Made by a program: the position numbers and the translations under genes. Positions 1,527 to 58,379 of a stretch of 64,000 nt of DNA are shown in pieces. The stretch is from NCBI GenBank assembly GCA_030324005.1, contig JARDVH010000025.1:40164836-40228835 (forward strand). The letters run 5' to 3'. The stretch comes from Negaprion brevirostris. Taxonomy: Eukaryota. Under the pieces are notes generated by a model. That model was given only the letters and a program-made list of their open reading frames with translations, was not told where the DNA came from and did no database searches. Positions within the stretch are counted from its first letter, which is position 1, and each line of letters begins with the position of its first letter.

Positions 1527-3212
1527 CTGCAAAGGTGGCAAAAATGAGTCAGAACAGCACAGCATACTAGCGCATCAAAGAAGTAGAAGTATTTACCTCT
1601 TAGCACAGGATGGGAACGCTGTGAAACAATTGCCAAATTAAAAAGTGCTTTGATGTGACTTACTCATTGATTCATAAGCTTTAGGCAAAATACATTTTGG
1701 AAGTATTTAATGAGAGTTAACTTTCATATCAAAACAGTTTACTAGATGAACTAAAGGATCTGAATTTAGAATGCTGTTAATTGGTATTGTCCCAGTACAT
1801 TAAGCAAAAGTCACAAGATTAATTGACATTCAGCTGTGGCTAAAATTGAGTATTTAATTAGTATACTGACTGTGTGAACTTCATAATTCTAAGATGCTCC
1901 AAATCCAGGGATATGTTTGGATGAACGTACATCCATGAATATCAATGTGATAGAGGAGAAAGGGACAGAAAGAGCCACATGATGTCAAAATGGAATTAGT
2001 TCTGTGTAATGTCCCCTGCTGTCTTGGTCCAATGTGACGTCTCAGTTATGCCACTGAGATGACACAGGATGCATTGCCCTGTTTCGGTTCGGTAGATTGC
2101 CTTGAGGAGCTTTGACAAATTGAGGGCACACAGCTACCAGAGCACTGAGGATTGTGAGTTGTTCCTGCCACTACCAGGCTTCTGTGATGACTGCAATGAT
2201 GCAGAGATATTGCAAAAGGCTATGCCTTCTGACATGAGACAGTGAACGCACTCATCCAAGTAGCGCCTTGCCTGTGATACCCACTGAGAGTAATGAGGTC
2301 GATGCTGCCAGTGAAGGCCGTTGTAAGTCAAGGTGCCATGAGCACTGTTTGATGAAAGATAAGTGAACAAACCTCAAAATCACAAGCAAAGTGCTGGTCG
2401 CCAGATACACATTGCTATATATCACTGTGAAATACGTCAGTCTAATTAGACGCTGACATGGCCTCTTGGTCTAGTGTCAAGGGGGATGATGTTACAGTAA
2501 GTCGGCTTTATAATGAGTATTCAATCACATTTTAAATGTGTTCAAATGGCTTTCCTGACATTATATGCCCGATTCTCCCATACTGACGTGCATGTTTTGT
2601 GGCGTGTCAGGTTGGGAGATGCATGTTGGCTATTTTGGGGGATTCGGGATACATGCACGCCTTTCACAGCCGGAGAACAGGTACAGTCAAGATGGAAACC
2701 AGTGGGATGACAAGGTAAGTGATTTAAATCTATTTTAAATGTGATTATTGGGCCCGGCACTGAGTCCTCCAGTCCTGATTGCAATTCCCACCACGCCGAG
2801 AGCATTTTACTCCAGCAGGGTTTGGAGTAGCTCCCAACCTTTGGCGAACTAGTGAGACACCCCACTGGAGTGAAGGGGGGTTCCCCTTCGGGGGCGGGGG
2901 GGAAGGTAGTGTCAGTGCCCCTGGGCATGGGAACCCAGAGGTGCCAGCTTGTGCCCCTTGGCACTGCCCAAGGGGCAGAGTGCCCATGCCCAGGGGACAC
3001 CTTGGCACTGCCCATTGAGCATCAGGCAGTGCCAAGGGGCTGATCGATGGGCGTTAGGGTTCCCGCTGCAACTCTGCAGATAGAATTGGTTGGGGTTGGA
3101 GGGAGGCCAGTGNNNNNNNNNNNNNNNNNNNNNNNNNNNNNNNNNNNNNNNNNNNNNNNNNNNNNNNNNNNNNNNNNNNNNNNNNNNNNNNNNNNNNNNN
3201 NNNNNNNNNNNN

Positions 3213-3917: not shown

Positions 3918-4133
<216 letters not shown>

Positions 4134-4699
4134 TCAGCAGTTTGCTTGGACCTTAGAATTTTTCTCAGGATGCGGCCAATGTGGTAAAGGCTGTACTTGT
4201 TGTCCACTTTGTTGTCCTAAATTTAACAATTCTAATTACCCACTAGCAAACTGAAGGCAGCATCATGGGTCAACCACGTGGTATGGAGTAAAGTCACATT
4301 CAGATATGCTAGGTGAGACACACATGCACACAATATCTATCAAAAATAGCATGTGGTCTCCAGATACCTGGCAGTGGTTGTAAATGTAACGTCACATGAT
4401 GGATTGAGAAGAATGGCATAGCACCTAATGTTTTCTCGTAGCCCAGCCATTGCCACTGTAGTATATAAAGACGTGGTCAATTCAGCATGCAGTTGCAGAT
4501 TCTGGGCACCAAGTGTCACTGTGAATTAGACAAGGTTCTTGGAGGTATCCACCATGTTGCTATAGGTAATTAAATGAAGACTTTTAATTTTCTCTGTTAA
4601 ACACAAAATTTCATGCACATCATTCAAAACTTTGCAGTCCTCTCTCCCACTCTACAAGATCACACCTTGTCCCCACCTCCGAACAGACTTTCATAATAT

Positions 4700-4992
4700 T
4701 TAGTTGTGTGTGTCACAAGTAGGTCTACATTAACACTGCATTGAAGTTACTGTGAATACCCTCTAATTGCCACACTCTGGCGCCTGTTCGGATACACAGA
4801 GAATTTAGCACAGCCAATGCATTTAACCAGCACATCTTCGGACTGTGGGAGGAAACTGGAGCACTGGAGGAAACCCATGCAGACATGGGGAGAATGCGCA
4901 GACTCCACACAGACAGTGACCCAAGCTGGGAGTCAAACCTGGGTCCCTGGAGCTGCGAGGCAGCAGTGTTAATCACTGCACCGCCATGCCAC
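4700..4992 (-). mobile_element. V-SINE-like SINE, tail type B
   Basis: Same head and body on the minus strand; tail cacagtaacttcaatgcagtgttaatgtagacctacttgtgaca. Confidence 0.85.
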
Positions 4993-5062
4993 CCCATGGG
5001 CTTGTAGGGACCTTCAAAAGCTCTAGAATGCAACTTGTTCAGCTGTCACAACCCATTAGGCA

Positions 5063-5192
5063 TGCTGTGGAGATGCTGGGGTTGGACTGGGATAAACACA
5101 GTAAGTCTGACAACACCAGGTTTAAGTCCAACCGATTTATTTGATGGTAAACTCGCAAGCTTTTGGGGTTTGCCCCTTTGTCAGGCGAACTC
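5063..5192 (-). mobile_element. Penelope-like fragment with decayed hammerhead
   Basis: Minus strand reads TTCGC-CTGACAA-A-GGGG(CAAA)CCCC-AAAA-GC-TT-GCGAG, then the family tail; another tail copy at 9243-9288 next to a gap. Confidence 0.55.
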
Positions 5193-5319
5193 TCCAAATT
5201 AAATGAATGAATTTTTAAAAAGCCCAGTGGATCATACTTACTGAACAAATACAAGGCCAATTTTCTCCTGATATACAGGTTTTTAAAAAAAATTCTTTCC
5301 TCCCTAATTGCACTTGGGA

Positions 5320-5678
5320 ATTGGCAGTGAGCTGCCTTTTTGGATAGCTGCAGTCCCCATATGGTGCAGGTGCACCCACAGTGCTTAATTTGCTCGGCCA
5401 TTTCAGAGGGCATTTAAGAGTGAATCACATTGTTGTAATTTTAGAGTCATATCTAGGCCAGACCAAATAAGGATATCAGTTTTCCTTTCCTAAAGGCATG
5501 AATGAACCAGATGGGTTTTTATGACAATTGACAATGGTTGCATGGTCATCAGTAAATTTGTAGATTCTTAATTCCAGATATTATTGCCATGGTGGGTTTC
5601 GAACCTGGATTCCCAGAACATTACCTTGGGCCTCTAGTTACTAGTTCAGTGACAATACCATCATGCCACCGCCTCCCC
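5320..5678 (-). mobile_element. Second tRNA-derived SINE family
   Basis: tRNA-like head on the minus strand (gggaggcggtggcatgatgg...ggttcgaaacccacc); body shared with 29160-29345. Confidence 0.6.
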
Positions 5679-6587
5679 GATTGCAAATTGTCATGCTGTG
5701 TCTTGGTGTAAAATATTGCCAAATGTTCTCAAACTACAGCACATAATAATCCAACGACAGAACCATTTTGTTCAACCTTACGAAGGAATATTATAGCCAA
5801 CAGTACATTCCAGAGTTTCAGTCGACTAGTTCATGAACCTTGAGTTTGCTCAACATTAATCGCAGACAGAAACGTGGCTGTATTTTTTACTTTTAGAAGT
5901 CAAACCTCATTACCTTAAGGCAACAAACGTGCAGCAGAGAGGAGTGGGGGCTGGGGGGGTCATAATTTCTGAAGACAAGTGTAAGGAACAAAATGTTCCT
6001 GCTGCAAACGTTCCTACAAATCAAGAGATTCTGGTGGCAATCTAATCATGGCCTATCATACAGGCCAAGGCTGAAGATTTCCTCTGTGATTTGTGGCTGA
6101 CAAACCTGTAAACTGCTTCATAAAGGAAAGGTTTATAATTCTGTTCCAGATGGTGTAGAGAGGAAATCCTCCAGTACAAAATGCTTTTCTTTTTGTGCAA
6201 AGATCCTAAAGTAAACAAAGTTAACATTTACACATTTTAAATTTAAGAATCAAAATGACTGAAGGGGTGCTTGTGTCATTGCGTGAATCATTGGTAGAAA
6301 GCACTTTGTTGAAACAGTGTACGAATCAATCCCTAATTTGGGGATTTTAGGACTCTTGTCCATCACCATTATGAACAGAAGGGGGCAACTGACAATATTT
6401 AATGAAAAACCCCATAACATTTAAAATAAGAGTAACTCTCCACAAAATAAAGGTACTTTATTCCTCTTCATAATCTACAAACACATCAGCTAATACCATG
6501 CACTCCATTCTGTATTCAGCACATCTACAATACAATTCTTGGCAGTAATACAGAACAGAAGACAAGAAGCCCAGAAATATAATAAAA

Positions 6588-6953
6588 TCAAAATGCCACG
6601 GATGCTGGAATCTCAAACAAAAACAGAAAATGCTGAAAAATCTCAGCAGGTCTGACAGCATCTGTTGGAAAGAGCCTAGAGCCAATGTTGAGTCTGGATG
6701 ATCCTTCATCGGAACCCAGAAACACTGGAATTTTCAAACAAATGAGGTTCATAGAAACAAAGATTCTTTGAATTCCTATCAAAAACGCTTTTTGATGTGA
6801 AGCAATGGCAGCTGCACTTTCTGACCTAGAACAATAATCCAGCAATTGGCTAGAAATCATGAATTATTGAGGCTCACTGACCTGAAACTAACTCAGTTTT
6901 TCCCTGTGCAGATTCTGCCTGTACAACTGAGCATTTCCAGCATTTTCTGCTTT
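6588..6953. mobile_element. Second Penelope-like/short retroposon family, two fragments in opposite orientation
   Basis: 6590-6715 (cagaaaatgctgaaaaatctcagcagg...ccttcatcgg) and 6870-6953 (ctgagcatttccagcattttctg) are complementary; degenerate CCGATGAAGG core on the minus strand. Confidence 0.45.
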
Positions 6954-7256
6954 GATATCAAATTCTGTGCTCAGATTTGCAGCTGCCTGCAACATTTAAT
7001 TTCTACACCAATGCTCTGGAGAATGTATCAGTAATCAGGAGGTAATTTAGGAAAGAATGAAGGAAAACTTTATGAAGAAACTGCACAAATGTATTTTAAA
7101 ATATTTATGCTCAGCTTAACGCTTTGTTTCTTTTCTGTATTACAAACCCTGTGCTGTGCATAGTACTAAAATTAAAGAAGGCACATGCAGACAACTAGCT
7201 TTCGAGCCACTGCCTGCATACTCTTCAACTGGCCAAGAAATGGTGGGTAAAAATGA

Positions 7257-9044
7257 CATTGATTTCATTTATTATCGCCACATGTATTAGTCTACAGTGA
7301 AAAGTATTGTTTCTTGTGCACTACACAGACAAAGCTAAGGAAAGATGGTACAATGGTTAGCACTGTGGCTTCTCAACGCCAACGACCCTGGTTCAATTCT
7401 GGCCTCAGGTCAATTCTCCCCGTGTTTGTGTGGATTTCCTCCGTTTTCCTCCCACAGCCCAAAGATGTGTGGGTTAGGTAGATTGGCCATAATAAATTGC
7501 CCCTTAGTTTCAGAGGGATTAACAGAGTAAATACTTGGGATTTAAGGGATAGAGCCTGGGTGGGATCATTGTCAGTGCAAGCTTGATGGGGCCAAATGGC
7601 CTCCTTCTACACTGTAGGGCTTCTATGATTTTTATGATTCTATGAAAGAGAATGCAGAATGTAGTGTTACAGTCATAACTAGGGCGTAGAGAAAGATCAA
7701 CTTAATGCAAGATAGGTCCATTCAAAAGTCTGACAGCAGCAGGGAAGAAGCTGTTTTTGAGTCGGTTATTAAGTGTTGTCAGACTTTTGTACCTTTTCCC
7801 GATGGAAGAGAGTATGCCCGGGATGTGTGGGGACTTTAATTATGATGGCTACTTTTCCAAGGCAATGGGAAGTGCAGACATTGTCAACAGTGGGAGGTTG
7901 GTTTGAGTGATGGACTGGCTTTCGTTCAAGACCCTTTGTAGTTTCTTGCAGTCTTGGACAGAGCTGAAGCCATACCAAGCTGTGANNNNNNNNNNNNNNN
8001 NNNNNNNNNNNNNNNNNNNNNNNNNNNNNNNNNNNNNNNNNNNNNNNNNNNNNNNNNNNNNNNNNNNNNNNNNNNNNNNNNNNNNNNNNNNNNNNNNNNN
8101 NNNNNNNNNNNNNNNNNNNNNNNNNNNNNNNNNNNNNNNNNNNNNNNNNNNNNNNNNNNNNNNNNNNNNNNNNNNNNNNNNNNNNNNNNNNNNNNNNNNN
8201 NCTTATTGAATGGCGGGGCAGGCTGGAAGGGCTAGATGGCCTACTCCTGCTCCTATTTCTTATGTTCTTATGTTCTTGAGGGATTATTGTCATCGCATCA
8301 GTTCACCAGCTTCTCTATCTCTTTCCTGTACACCGTCTCATTATTGTTTGAAATCTAACCATAATGGTAGTGTCATTAGCAAACTTGAAAAATTGAGTTG
8401 GAGGGGAATTTGGCCACACAATCAATCATCGGTGTATAAGAAGTATAGTAGGGGACTGAGGACACAACCTTGCGGTGCACCAGTGTTGAGGATGATCATG
8501 CAGGAGGTGTCATTGCCTATCTTTACTGATTGCACTCTGGGGTTAGGAAGTTCAGGATCCAGTCACAGAAGGAGGAGCTGAGACTCAGGCCGTGGAATTT
8601 GGGGTTGAGTTTCGTAGGAATAATGGTGTTGAATGCTGAGCTGTAGTCGATAAATAGGAGTTTGACATAGATGTCTTTGTTATCTAGGTGTTCCAGTATT
8701 GACTGCAGGGCCAGGGAGATGGCGTCTGCTGTGGATCCGGCGCTGATCAGCTGGCGGGATTATTTGTGGATCCAGGCCATCTGGGAGGCCAGACTTGATT
8801 CGTGCCATGACTAACCTTTCGAAGCACTTCATAAATGATAGATGTCAGAGCCACCGACTGATAGTCATTAAGGTATGCTGCTTGACTTTTCTTTGGCACC
8901 AGGATGATGGTCATCTTCTTGAAGCAGATAGGGAGCTCAGATTGTTGTGAAGAGAGGTTGAAGATGTCTGCGAATAATCCCGCCAGCTGATCAGAGCTGG
9001 ATCGGAATGCTTGTAAGTATACTCAGTCCAGGCCCGTCGCTTTC
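7257..9044 (-). mobile_element. Rex1/Babar-clade LINE remnant (RT and 3' end), interrupted by a SINE and a CR1 insertion
   Basis: Minus strand encodes LNTGAPQGCVLSPLLYFLYT and KFANDTT (RT motifs); its 3' UTR recurs at 48460-48760 and 61113-61325. Confidence 0.75.
7345..7644 (+). mobile_element. V-SINE/HE1-like SINE, tail A, nested in the Rex/Babar LINE
   Basis: Family body and tail; LINE sequence resumes on both sides. Confidence 0.85.
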
Positions 9045-34255: not shown

Positions 34256-34422
34256 CTGATCTTGATACTTACACGGGACAAATGAGTTGCCTCTTTTGTT
34301 AAGGATTACATCCCTGAATTGTGTTTGTACGTGCGTGTGCACATTCACACATAGGTGTTTGTGTGAGTGCACATGGGAGCACCAGGTTAAAGAAACACAA
34401 ATATAAAATTAAAACCACATAC

Positions 34423-34576
34423 AGGAAATCGAACCAATGACACAGCTTCATTGGTGGCTTCAACAATAAAATCCATCCAAAAGTCCATCCGTTCCTGATA
34501 TTCAGAGGGCTGCTCTGGAGTTTGCTTCTTGAAACGTTGGTATATATGAATGGTTTGTACAACAGACTTCAGATAC
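34423..34576 (-). CDS. MAP3K5: MAP3K5 coding exon (approx. exon 10), YLKSVVQTIHIYQRFKKQTPEQPSEYQERMDFWMDFIVEATNEAVSLVRFP
   Basis: Acceptor ttttgcatttgtAG, donor CCT|GTATGT; 154 nt. Confidence 0.95.
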
Positions 34577-37324: not shown

Positions 37325-37735
37325 TGAAGCAATGACCATATTACCCTCATTAACCCTCTCTGCACTCATCAGAAACTCATGAATGCAAGTTAGAAATGAT
37401 TTGCCTTTAACAAATCCATACTGGCTTTCCTTAATTAATCCACAATTGTTTAAGTGACTGTTAATTTTATCCTCCAACATTGCTAAGAGCTCTTCTACGA
37501 GGAACGTTAATCTGAAAGGTCTGTATTTGCTGGATTCATCCTTGCCTCTGTTCCAGAACAAAGTGTATTGTTCACAATTCTCCAGTCGTCTGGCACCAGG
37601 CTTGTATCTAAGGAGGATGAGAAGATCATGACCAGTGCCTCTGTAATTTTCACTCTTATTTCCCTCAGCATCCTGAGATGTACCCATCCAGTTCTGGTGA
37701 CTTATCCACCTTAAGTAGAGGCAGTTTTTCCTCAA
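37325..37735 (-). mobile_element. CR1 ORF2 (RT) fragment
   Basis: YRPFRLT...LIKESQYGFVKGKSFLT motif. Confidence 0.75.
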
Positions 37736-38480
37736 ACCTTCACCGTAGAGGTGAGAGTTAGAGTGTCTTTGTGCCAGGTACCTGCCTTTAGTGTGAAACT
37801 GACTGAGTTTTGGTTTTTCTCAGATGTGAACCCTGAAAGTTTTTTTTTAATGGANNNNNNAAATAGGTTTCCTGTCCACATAAAACCAGTGGGGGCAAGA
37901 ATGGCTTAAACACCCATTACTGAGGCCACTCATTGTCCTGAGGTAGAGAGTTTGTGCTAAAGAGAAGCAAGAAGTTGCAGGGGAGCCAAAGAACTGAGAC
38001 CCAGGAAGGAGAGGCAGGGAAGTCTCTTCCCAGAGGATGGTGGGGCAAGCCACCTTGTAATGCAGCAGGTCCACCTTCCTGTTCAGCGACATCTCTCTTT
38101 GGTGAGCAACTTGCCTCTTCTTCTTCCAGGGCTTTACTATTATCAAGGTCCACATCTCTCTGGAGGGCCATGTTTTGGAGAGTGCAGATTATCACTCTGA
38201 CCGAGATGATGTGGAGGATGAGGAAGAGGAAGGGGATGAGTTTGCAGGGCATCACATGACTGCACTGGGCACAGACCCATATTCACTTAGAAGGCAATTC
38301 GAAGCTCTGGTCTGTCATAATTCAGCTAAAATCTTTTATCATCTAGCAGCGAGCTCATTGGAAAATAACATATTTTGTTAATCACAGTCTCTGCTGCTCT
38401 TATACTTTAATTCCATCCTCAGTCCAAAATCTGTTACACACTGGGAGAAATTTGTAAAGAGGCACTGACAGCAGGGTGGC

Positions 38481-38524
38481 CAACATCACAGGTTTAACAA
38501 CATCACCGGTTTAACAACATCACC
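38481..38524. repeat. 17-bp tandem repeat, about 2.6 copies
   Basis: CAACATCAC(A/C)GGTTTAA x2 followed by CAACATCACC. Confidence 0.9.
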
Positions 38525-39101
38525 ATGCATACGGCTCAGATCATGAATATATCAAAAAATTCAAAGGCAAGCAGTATAATGAACTATTTACAGGTAGACA
38601 CTACACAAGTTCAAAAACAAATAAATAAATGTGAACACTCTCATTTGGCAAAAGAACAAACTGATTTTTCTTCCCTTTGAACTGTATCTGTAAGTCATAT
38701 TTAACAAATGATTATCATCCGTGTCTTATCTGTTGGGGACCAACACGGTGGTTATATGGACAGAGCAGGGGCAGATGGTAGTTCTTTGGAATATCACAAA
38801 ACTGAAGGCTACAATTTAGCAATCCTAGATCCCGAGTGCTTTTTAACTGATCTCTCATTATGCCCTGCCACCTTCAGTGATTTGTGCATATGTAGCCCCA
38901 GGTCCCTCTATTCCTAAGCCTCCTTTAGAAATCTACCCTGCCTCTCCTCATTCTTCCGACCAAAATGAATTACTTCACATCTCTCTGCATTAAATTTCTT
39001 CCCATTCCCCCGACTTACGTCTTTTTGAAGTTCTATACTACATTCCTCATGGTTCACTACTTCCAAGCTTTGTTATCCAGAAATTTTGAAACTGTGCCCT
39101 G

Positions 39102-39301
39102 TGCAGTAAGATGTGGAGGTGCTGGTGTTGGACTGGGGTGGGGACAGTAAGAAGTCTCACAACACCAGGTTAAAGTCCAACAGATTTATTTCAGATAAAT
39201 GTCACACTCACCTGAGGAAGGAGCAGTGCTCCGAAAGCTCGTGATTCCAAATAAATCTGTTGGACTTTAACCTGATGTTGAGGCTTCTTACCCTGCCCAC
39301 C
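39102..39301. mobile_element. Penelope-like pseudo-LTR fragments in inverted arrangement
   Basis: About 39147-39191 (taagaagtctcacaacaccaggttaaagtccaacagatttattt) is the near reverse complement of about 39249-39290; the hammerhead motif lies between the arms. Confidence 0.65.
39208..39244 (+). ncRNA. Minimal type I hammerhead ribozyme motif in a Penelope-like repeat
   Basis: TCAC-CTGAGGA-A-GGAGC(AGT)GCTCC-GAAA-GC-TC-GTGA: intact CUGANGA and GAAA core, 5-bp stem II, UH site, stem I TCAC/GTGA. Confidence 0.75.
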
Positions 39302-39979
39302 AAGATGTAGGTTATTAATAAATATGTAGAGCAGCATGGGCGAGTGGGGAACCTGATTATAAACTTCCCTTCGGTCTGAAAAACAACTGTTCGCCATTAC
39401 TTTTGGTTTCCTGTCAGTCAGCCAATTTGCCACATTTTCCTGCTGTCTCTTCTATTCCATGAGCTCCAACTTTGTTCACAAGTCTGTAAATAGCATTTTG
39501 TCAAATATCTTTTGGAAGCCCACATACACCCAATCAACCACATTGCCCTCATCGATCTTCATTCATGTCTTTGCTACTTCTAAATGATTTCTCCTGGCTG
39601 ACACCCACCCCTCTGCCACCATCTTCCACCCTTCATAAAATTTTAGCTCTTCCAGAACTCTGCTGCCATGTCTCAACTGGCAGCAATGGCAGGATTTTCC
39701 AGCCCATCCCGCCAGCACAATCTCCTGGGGAACCTGCTGCCACGGGGCTTAAATCCTGACCAAGTCCTGTTCATCCACCATCCCCGTGCTCGCTGACTGA
39801 GATAGGTTTCCCAGTTAAGTAATGCCTCAATTTTAAAATGCTCATCCTGATTTCAAATGCCTCCACAACCTTTCAACCTCTTCACCCTGCAAACAGGAAA
39901 TGTCTGTGCTCAAGCCCATTGCACGCTCCAATTTTAATCTTTCACCCAAGCCAACTGGGATAGCTTATATTTTTTAAAG

Positions 39980-40260
39980 CTTATTTTAGTGTCACAAGTA
40001 GACTTACATTAATCCTGCAATGAAGTTACTGTGAAAATGCCCTAGTTGTCACACTCTGGCACCTATTCAGGTACACCGAAGGAGAATTTAGCACGGCCAA
40101 TCGACATAACCAGCTGGTCTTTCGGGCTGTGGGAGGAAACTGGAGCACCTGGGAGGAAACCTATGTAGACAAGGGGAAAACATGCAAACTCCACACTGAC
40201 AGTGACCCAAGTCGGGAATTGAACCCAGGTCCCTGGCGCTGTGAGGCAGCAGTGCCACCG
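39980..40260 (-). mobile_element. V-SINE-like SINE, tail B
   Basis: Family sequence on the minus strand. Confidence 0.85.
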
Positions 40261-40547
40261 TTATACTGTCAAGAAGCCCAGACACCTCAGTGGGCTTGGA
40301 GAATCCCGACCAAGTTCTGAAATTTCACACCATTCAACTCATCTTCACAATGAAACGATTTTATTTTTCTGTATTATGTTCTCATTGGATAAAAAAGAAA
40401 TAAATCTGAAAAACATGAGCCTTTGTATCTTTGAATCTTCCCTATTTCAAAGAATGCCTAAATGACTCAAACATCCTAATCTCTATAATGAGATAAATCC
40501 CAACTATTCTAGCTTCTTATCCCAATCCAACGGGAATGCAGACTTAC

Positions 40548-40707
40548 CATGCAGGTGCCTTGAGTTTGAAAAGCTTCTCAGAAGCCATAATAACTCGGAA
40601 AGGATCATTTGCCAACATGCTGGCGCCTAGGAAAAAGCCCACATCCCAGTAACTCTGTATTTTTTCCAGGTTTCCCTTTTTCCCCAGTAAGCTGCTGAGT
40701 TTTACAC
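40548..40707 (-). CDS. MAP3K5: MAP3K5 coding exon (approx. exon 9), [54 protein letters not shown]
   Basis: Acceptor ctcatttgtacAG, donor TG|GTAAGT; 160 nt. Confidence 0.96.
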
Positions 40708-41176
40708 CTGTACAAATGAGAAAAACCACCAACATTAGCATAGTTGTGGAAATCAGATTGCTGCATTACAATGAAATTGGCTCATAAATAAAAGCACAAT
40801 TAGATGTGACAATATTTGAGTTGATTCCTTAAAGAGAAAATCTGTAACATGTCAATGGCATAAAGCAACCAGTATACAATTATGACCAATGTTTCCATCG
40901 TCCATAAAATATCCCAAATTTGCAGATCTTGGGAGACAATATTATCCCAGATTTTAACTGCTTTCCTTCTAGCTTTTATTCTTTTCAGTTTTTGTCAATA
41001 TTTAGGGAGGACATGCACAACATTCTGATCTTAATCTCAATTCTCCAGTTGAATCAAACATCATGAATCAAGAACAGAGCAAAACATTGGGCCAGCATGT
41101 TCTCTTAATGAACTGGTTTGTCAACACATCCAATGCAGTTACAGAGAGTGTCCCTCAGCTTCAGGTCATAATGATG

Positions 41177-53499: not shown

Positions 53500-53716
53500 T
53501 CTCTACTCACATTGTCTGCGCCTTTAAGACTTGATTAGCTGTAAAGACTCCTCGCATTCTAATTAGAATTCTGTAAACTGAGTGTGTGCCTTTATATGCC
53601 CTGTTTGTGATCAGAACACCCCACTTACCTGATGAAGGAGCAGTGCTCCGAAAGCTAGTGGCATTTGCTACCAAATAAATCTGTTGGACTTTAACCTGGT
53701 GTTGTGAGACTTCTTA
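53500..53716 (+). mobile_element. Penelope-like pseudo-LTR/3' fragment
   Basis: Hammerhead followed by the family tail aataaatctgttggactttaacctggtgttgtgagacttctta. Confidence 0.6.
53625..53661 (+). ncRNA. Minimal type I hammerhead ribozyme motif in a Penelope-like repeat
   Basis: TTAC-CTGATGA-A-GGAGC(AGT)GCTCC-GAAA-GC-TA-GTGG; core intact, stem I weakened by G.U pairs. Confidence 0.7.
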
Positions 53717-57346: not shown

Positions 57347-57432
57347 CAAGTCACCTGATGAAGGGGCAGTGCTCCAAAAGCTTGTGGCTTGTGCCACCAA
57401 ATAAACCTGTTGGACTTTAACCTGGTGTTGTG
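57347..57432 (+). mobile_element. Penelope-like fragment with mutated hammerhead
   Basis: CTGATGA-A-GGGGC(AGT)GCTCC-AAAA (GAAA lost) plus the same family tail. Confidence 0.6.
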
Positions 57433-58379
57433 CAACTGTGGCGTACAGTCAGGAGACAGTTGCCCCCAAAATTCTCAACATCTACCTCCAGACTTGAAGA
57501 TTCCCAGGATTAGGTCAAAAATGGGTAAGGAAACTTCCAGCTCATNNNNNNNNNNNNNNNNNNNNNNNNNNNNNNNNNNNNNNNNNNNNNNNNNNNNNNN
57601 NNNNNNNNNNNNNNNNNNNNNNNNNNNNNNNNNNNNNNNNNNNNNNNNNNNNNNNNNNNNNNNNNNNNNNNNNNNNNNNNNNNNNNNNNNNNNNNNNNNN
57701 NNNNNNNNNNNNNNNNNNNNNNNNNNNNNNNNNNNNNNNNNNNNNNNNNNNNNNNNNNNNNNNNNNNNNNNNNNNNNNNNNNNNNNNNNNNNNNNNNNNN
57801 NNNNNNNNNNNNNNNNNNNNNNNNNNNNNNNNNNNNNNNNNNNNNNNNNNNNNNNNNNNNNNNNNNNNNNNNNNNNNNNNNNNNNNNNNNNNNNNNNNNN
57901 NNNNNNNNNNNNNNNNNNNNNCAAGTGGGATAGATTTTGCAAAAGATCTCCAAAATGGGCAACCATGAAGTGCTTTATTCAACCACAAACTACAAACTCA
58001 TGGTCTGGCAGGTTCCCCGCTCTACCATTATCATCAAGCCAGGGGATCAACCCTGGTTCAATGAAAAGTGCAGGAGGGCATGCCAGGAACAGCACCAGGC
58101 AGACCTAAAAACGAGGTATCAACCGGCTGAAGGACTACTTGTATGCCAAACAGTGGAATCAGCACACAGAGTAAAGGATAATTGGTCCTCCCAAGAAAGT
58201 TAAGTGCCTTCTTTCCTTTCACCAGCCTTTGGCTTTCATTCAGGGAACCTTTAAATGTATCTGCGTTACTTGGACAAACACACAAGCTTTATCTACTGGG
58301 TACTGAAGGATTGAATCATCAGATCACATATTTAGATCAGATTTATTTCTTTAAAGTCAGTAATGACAAGACTTGCATA

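Follow-up and report, generated by a model that had tools for sequence, protein, structure and literature searches.

A minimal type I hammerhead in an old, probably inert Penelope-like insertion antisense to shark MAP3K5

Introduction

According to Cervera and De la Pena (2014, PMC4209133), metazoan Penelope-like elements (PLEs) carry minimal hammerhead ribozymes (min-HHRs) of type I, with an extra nucleotide that separates positions 9 and 10.1, a G10.1-C11.1 pair, a palindrome at 15.2-16.2, no loop 3 and a short helix I. In the cited parts of that paper, they are mostly single motifs in truncated PLEs, with thousands per lower-vertebrate genome, and they show no activity as monomers and a weak one as dimers or trimers; elsewhere, metazoan min-HHRs are reported to need the protein of the element (PMC11167929). 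The shark family described here shares these structural traits, and it too occurs thousands of times per genome, for the most part as single motifs in PLEs that are truncated. It differs from the published set in its host, a cartilaginous fish, and in its helix II of 5 bp, while its estimated copy number is above the 4,000-9,000 reported there. Cartilaginous fish are absent from Table S1 of that paper and, by six names, from its supplement 2.

In the Poseidon element PAc of Anolis, the hammerhead lies at the junction of the pseudo-LTR (pLTR) and the ORF, and two end classes define a tail of 30-40 nt, as described in the cited sections of Frangieh et al. (2024, PMC11167929). The shark family is similar in both respects, its tail being about 34 nt. 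Unlike Penelope/Poseidon, it has a CX4CxxC linker. More generally, EN+ PLE insertions are head-to-head inverted repeats with a 30-40 nt tail at one end only, a target-site duplication (TSD) of about 7-18 bp, and TATA and Inr-like words in the pLTR (parts of PMC8557442 and PMC3846280). The shark family has the same inverted, truncated pLTR with such a tail at one end and a TSD, the TSD at the present locus being suggestive. Unlike those insertions, the one at 39110-39301 has no ORF, and both of its arms are shorter than 100 nt.

A type I hammerhead related to that of PLE pLTRs is also found in the non-LTR retrozymes, which the cited part of a preprint reports in one chondrichthyan (bioRxiv 10.64898/2026.07.22.740005). 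Those occur as tandem arrays with two or more hammerheads, unlike the single inverted stub studied here. No retrozyme-type direct repeat was found in 37500-41000, and on the same strand the next copy whose core is intact lies 14.4 kb from the hammerhead. No paper on shark PLE hammerheads was found in a literature search that had subscription journals and Repbase outside its scope; the preprint may name related families, and one hammerhead review mentions 'shark' for shape only in its cited part (PMC6155905). Publications already describe this type of motif, where it is placed and the inverted layout.

Results

In the window (the whole 64-kb stretch of DNA analysed), a minimal type I hammerhead was located at 39208..39244 on the plus strand by reading the sequence, by a descriptor and by the family alignment. 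Stem I (TCAC/GTGA, 39208-11/39241-44, 4 bp) encloses the core CTGAGGA (39212-18), an extra A (39219), stem II (GGAGC-AGT-GCTCC, 39220-24/39228-32, 5 bp with a 3-nt loop), the GAA (39233-35) of the GAAA box (39233-36) and the palindrome AGCT (39236-39239), which stands for helix III. The cut is predicted after C17 (39240). The letters, core, stem II, UC cut site and stem I are exactly as claimed in the initial annotation. All positions expected of a min-HHR core are present (C3-A9, G12-A14, A15.1-U16.1 and H17), as are the extra nucleotide between 9 and 10.1 (A39219) with G10.1-C11.1 and the palindromic 15.2-16.2 without a stable helix III. The motif cannot be ascribed to chance, since it matches three times in the window versus never in 100 shuffles. 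A strict min-HHR descriptor gave five matches in 0.89 Mb of non-N sequence versus 1, 0, 0, 0 and 0 in five Markov controls. Among the nine Rfam matches over the region at E<=10 there is no hammerhead family, so that the covariance search suggested earlier returned no hammerhead for 39208-39244, and the motif falls outside the canonical type I class as defined by the Rfam model and loop 1-loop 2 contacts. The miRNA-family matches of Rfam at this locus reflect the inverted repeat only. The hammerhead at 39208-39244 is real and belongs to the minimal type I known from PLE pLTRs; the earlier assignment, including the palindromic helix III, is supported by the sequence together with the ORF-linked family copies described below.

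The hammerhead is part of a 192-bp insertion in which an antisense tail arm and a sense stub with hammerhead and tail are arranged head to head. The antisense arm (39110..39191, minus strand) is an element end with the full tail (profile end column 134) and is truncated on its 5' side, 8 nt downstream of where the hammerhead is predicted to cut. It is followed by 13 nt of junction filler (39192..39204). At 39181-39203, the filler resembles a short fold-back copy of the left-arm end, which suggests, as judged from the letters, a template switch at the arm joint. The sense stub of the pLTR (39205..39301, plus strand), delimited by the family profile and the 5'-end map, begins 7 nt before C3 and carries the hammerhead, followed by the tail in its short form. 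A possible TSD of 7 nt is seen at 39108..39114, overlapping the arm end, and at 39302..39308 (both plus strand); since its score of 7 is equalled by 57 of 600 control pairs, it is only suggestive at this locus. The paired arms span 39137-39191 (55 nt) and 39249-39301 (53 nt), with 48 of 53 aligned letters being complementary, and the left arm extends 27 nt beyond the pairing, to 39110, as the unpaired PLE 'tail'. The inverted arrangement is thus borne out by the arm alignment, with arms of 55 and 53 nt instead of the roughly 45 bp first given. Contrary to what had been proposed, the two arms do not enclose the hammerhead as a unit of its own; it forms the 5' part of the sense stub.

Long family copies lead upstream into an ORF end. 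In locus L068, RT motifs, GIY-YIG and a stop are followed in one piece, about 220 nt on, by the same hammerhead and tail, and all eight long ORF loci examined end in this hammerhead-tail repeat, their ORFs being Neptune-like remnants of RT and GIY-YIG. This places the min-HHR in a PLE pLTR and establishes the association with Penelope RT/GIY-YIG ORFs which the initial annotation had anticipated. In L068, L107 and L224, one ORF encodes RT and, at its C-terminus, a GIY-YIG with CCHH; such an ORF is absent from the stub at 39110-39301. For RVT_1, the L068 piece falls short of the cut-off, which P0003 exceeds; GIY-YIG was recognised by motif, with a Pfam match only in the relative P0006. The 370-aa open piece P0001 is 55% identical to P0003, an RVT_1 protein of 881 aa. 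Both, like the genomic copies, have a CX4CxxC linker between RT and EN, within the CX2-5CxxC range of Neptune/Nematis, and two Cys between GIY and YIG; this type of linker and these Cys are given as marks of Neptune/Nematis in the cited part of PMC8557442. The element therefore likely belongs to the Neptune clade, an assignment made by motifs only. No intact autonomous ORF, and no autonomous copy flanked by direct pLTRs, was found among 52 scored of 33,242 candidates, a stricter first look at a small sample which does not show absence, and the best candidate among these covers aa 120-880 with six stops. Pieces of the element ORF of 60-90 aa, 56-79% identical, are also present in P0012, P0014, P0017 and P0025 (shark XRCC5, PPP1R12A-like, FSTL5 isoforms and one uncharacterised protein), either as exonised PLE sequence or as annotation errors.

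Next, the abundance of the family was assessed. In an unselected sample of 1.08 Mb (0.89 Mb non-N, of which 0.48 Mb lies around MAP3K5), taken from stretches that had been picked without regard to the motif, 46 insertions were counted, i.e. about 52 per Mb, with 17 of the 46 being two-armed and none found in the reversed control. Extrapolated from these 46, the family is estimated at roughly 100,000 insertions. A genome search with a 211-nt query returned 3210 candidates, and all 40 that were scored match most of the query. The 35-nt hammerhead core has 223 exact genome copies, and a core pattern with both CpGs left free has 1418 matches. One tail pattern has 13,586 exact matches; these are swamped by long-spacer subfamilies and were used as a copy-number floor and as the source of 30 loci. 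Three more copies lie in the window, as placed by the family profile: a second copy on the plus strand (53618..53716) with an intact core (A17; also found by the descriptor) and more pLTR upstream, a third (57349..57437, plus strand) with its core broken by G12A in the core parse, and one of another subfamily (5064..5194, minus strand), parsed as broken by G8A and G12A. Locus L061, with two same-strand cores 2.7 kb apart, was considered as a full-length element and proved to be two independent stubs.

The core could be parsed in 73 of 125 matches, the others being without upstream sequence, containing N or being truncated. Since the parse was anchored on fuzzy core motifs, which favours the extra A, core conservation is partly built into the following counts: the extra nucleotide is A in 72 of 73 copies, pair 10.1-11.1 is GC in 47 and GU in 20 of 73, and position 17 reads A30/U27/C13/G3. 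Pair 4 of stem II is G-C in 36/73 and A-U in 16/73. Covariation was scored on the 42 rows of equal length (31 of unequal length left out), with relatedness not controlled: 88.5% of the cells of helices I and II are paired, 13 cells show a double change, and the covariation score was reached by none of 500 shuffles. The number of pairs with a double change was not above shuffles (252/500). The helix 3 palindrome is 90.5% paired, its A-U being kept in 40/42 and G-C or G-U in 36/42 rows. Covariation thus appears to support helix II and, weakly, helix I, and the stem covariation across family copies that the initial annotation called for is found. As the stems covary across subfamilies, the source elements kept the fold.

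The inserted copies were examined at the CpG formed by C11.1 and G12, G12 being the general base of the hammerhead (PMC6155905, cited part). In a hand count of the first 100 listed of the 1418 matches, CG occurs 34, TG 33 and CA 33 times, which makes the lethal G12A as common as the tolerated wobble C11.1U (33:33). Among the parsed copies, G12A is present in 19/73 and the core is intact in 24/73, and the strict descriptor is passed by four arms from three of the 46 unselected insertions. From these counts, single inserted copies decay neutrally, with the catalytic G12 being lost at the neutral CpG rate. The copy at 39208-39244 is among the better preserved ones and not exceptional, its intact core probably being a survivor of neutral decay.

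The host gene is MAP3K5. The best matches of the TRAF-binding exon in the window are shark MAP3K5 proteins (95-98% identity), and in window coordinates the MAP3K5 exons extend along the minus strand between 101.5 kb and -41.2 kb. The exons upstream (40547..40711, aa 431-485 of P0030) and downstream (34420..34575, aa 486-537) of the host intron both map to the minus strand with 100% identity, and the insertion lies within this intron, its distance to the donor site being about 1.25 kb. This makes the hammerhead antisense to MAP3K5, as initially annotated, and the MAP3K5 pre-mRNA carries only its non-catalytic reverse complement. This reverse complement is predicted to fold into a 55-bp hairpin (z -10.5). 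Such a hairpin (39110-39301, minus strand) may be a substrate for A-to-I editing, a situation that would recur at tens of thousands of loci. The MAP3K5 span holds six hammerhead-bearing copies (window positions 5064, 39212, 53629 and 57355; L062:1165-1276 and 6958-7049), of which three of four antisense and none of two sense copies are intact, an orientation bias that is not significant (p 0.4). The copy number of the family permits a genome-wide test for purging of intact intronic hammerheads from the sense strand.

Contigs of related organisms B and D cross both insertion junctions, and one of organism C crosses the right junction, with flank differences of about 3-4%. As both junctions are present in B and D, the insertion predates their split; from these alignments, it is evidently old. 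In the empty-site search, the match of a contig of organism E ends at 39113, with a further 41 contig letters beyond the alignment displayed.

The monomer at 39208-39244 has no helix III, and an active double hammerhead needs stem I to be swapped between two molecules. Nearest-neighbour folding, which ignores tertiary contacts and protein help, put the active dimer at -21.3 kcal/mol, two monomers at -26.0 and an alternative duplex at -37.6; an active dimer of this copy is thus predicted to be disfavoured. In the in-context fold, the probability is 0.99 for stem II and about 0.3 for stem I, and the motif sits in a loop closed by the flanking helix. The hammerhead fold is only 2.3 kcal/mol above the in-context minimum.

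Discussion

Alongside the observed anatomy, family membership, ORF linkage, orientation and age of the insertion, we are highly confident of its identity as an abundant PLE with a minimal hammerhead in its end repeat. The hammerhead is very probably inert at this locus, and the complete reading, i.e. an old, two-armed, 5'-truncated PLE insertion, antisense in a MAP3K5 intron and with a likely inert copy, is considered probable as a whole. That the copy is a working self-cleaving antisense RNA, a potential raised originally, or is special finds no support: it is one of an estimated 100,000 insertions, G12 decays neutrally, the TATA-like word of the pLTR is missing, the nearest intact same-strand partner is 14.4 kb away and the dimer is predicted to be disfavoured. 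The ribozyme would have mattered in the RNA of the source element, probably as a protein-assisted dimer.

Low-rate cleavage of a functionless copy, on plus-strand read-through with a family transcript or the element protein, is unlikely, although it fares best among the alternatives. Min-HHR dimers and trimers cleave weakly (PMC4209133, cited part), the PLE hammerhead of Anolis cleaves with the element protein (PMC11167929, cited part), possible partner transcripts are many given the family size, and the palindrome is kept in most rows of the alignment. However, stem I strands must be exchanged for the active dimer to form, a step that the flanking helix of 55 bp would impede, no intact ORF is among the 52 candidates scored, and eight of nine Xenopus dimer elements did not cleave according to the cited part of the preprint (bioRxiv 2026.07.22.740005).

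Less probable still is co-option of this copy as a transcribed antisense ribozyme with a regulatory role in MAP3K5. The motif has retained its core and both stems, related organisms share the insertion, and domesticated intronic hammerheads are reported in amniotes (PMC6155905, cited part), but those are canonical hammerheads. The present motif has no helix III of its own, and its dimer is predicted to be disfavoured. It also lies on the wrong strand for cutting the MAP3K5 pre-mRNA, in a stub without the TATA-like word of the pLTR, and about a third of the parsed copies are equally intact at the core. As an old, very probably inert PLE fragment with no indicated effect on MAP3K5, the locus at 39110-39301 itself matters little. 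The family, with its estimated 100,000 insertions and several covarying subfamilies, offers the statistics for mapping PLE RNA start and RT initiation sites, and could show whether a min-HHR cuts in vivo.

The mode of insertion was studied in 30 inverted loci selected for likeness to this insertion. A TSD score of at least 8 is reached by 18 of these 30, versus 9 of 600 controls; insertion sizes cluster at 148-208 nt with TSDs, and arm ends fall into two classes, mostly one at profile column ~134 and the other at ~99-101. It is highly improbable that the 190-bp fold-back spreads whole, as a MITE- or retrozyme-like mobile unit that is non-autonomous, despite this size cluster and the 40/40 scored loci matching most of the 211-nt query, as the loci were picked for likeness to the query, the arm junction and antisense-arm length differ at every locus compared, 29 of 46 unselected insertions are single-armed, and there is no tandem array as in non-LTR retrozymes.

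The 5' ends are informative for a PLE insertion route. In 32 of 82 arms they lie 0-14 nt before C3, with a mode at -6, and the unselected set shows the same for 15 of its 38 arms (p 7e-5); the sense stub at 39205-39301 begins at -7, inside this hotspot. Of 47 longer copies, 27 have a TATA-like word at -35/-36, about 30 nt ahead of a conserved A at -6. Since the stub starts behind this word, it does not contain it. For comparison, TATA plus Inr is described in the pLTR of a rotifer PLE (PMC3846280, cited part), and Drosophila Penelope is reported to be TATA-less (PMC2377424, cited part). The simplest reading of the hotspot and the TATA-like word suggests that the stubs are cDNAs copied from an uncut RNA 5' end, a reading that draws on breakpoints and motifs, not RNA; stalling of the RT at stem I is an alternative source of the hotspot.

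If the stubs are such cDNAs, the element RNA would start about 6 nt before the hammerhead core. The element RT/endonuclease would nick both target strands, thereby priming two cDNAs, and two internal RT starts about 34 nt apart would give the long and the short tail; two internal RT starts and nicking of both target strands are described for PAc in the cited part of PMC11167929. One cDNA would reach the 5' end of the uncut RNA and yield the sense stub, the other would stop early and yield the antisense arm, and the two would be joined head to head. For the present insertion, this two-cDNA route has about an even chance of being correct. More tentatively, and at somewhat less than even chance, the hammerhead-plus-tail stubs might form a fossil map of the PLE replication cycle with a ribozyme switch. 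The RNA would then start at the TATA/Inr site about 6 nt before the core, while the RT would start internally about 85-120 nt downstream and reach the uncleaved RNA 5' end, like retroviral strong-stop DNA, the stubs being short cDNAs integrated without a jump to the 3' pLTR. The ribozyme would be a switch that is off during copying, cleavage removing the capped leader at another stage.

A footprint of cleavage in the arm starts was also looked for: of 74 non-long arms, 4 have their start no more than 1 nt from the cut (expected 2, p 0.14). In this subfamily genome-wide, all 45 of 45 matches were classified by hand, giving 10 internal deletions and 9, 4, 9, 6 and 7 apparent starts at positions 0 to -4, and among 194 other matches about 13 of the first 100 listed start one position downstream. 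The filters of these comparisons differ, the test is rough, and an upstream control (124 matches) was dominated by small deletions and left unused. With no clear peak of starts at the cut site, a cleavage footprint is not confirmed. The arms beginning exactly at the predicted cut, a not significant set, are L151:1255-1304, L178:4120-4158, L247 (centre) and L160:8979-9062.

Some further copies were noted. A min-HHR of a different family, with the palindrome ACGT and other stems, passes the strict descriptor at L144:4940-4975 (plus strand), and a similar motif is present at L004:1440. Small internal deletions affect the hammerhead of many copies (stem II or palindrome), often between short repeated words. 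In the two-armed insertion L169:1788-1922 (minus strand) and 2090-2197 (plus strand), both arms pass the strict descriptor, and in the subfamily to which it belongs a GAAA loop caps stem II, which is 4 bp long.
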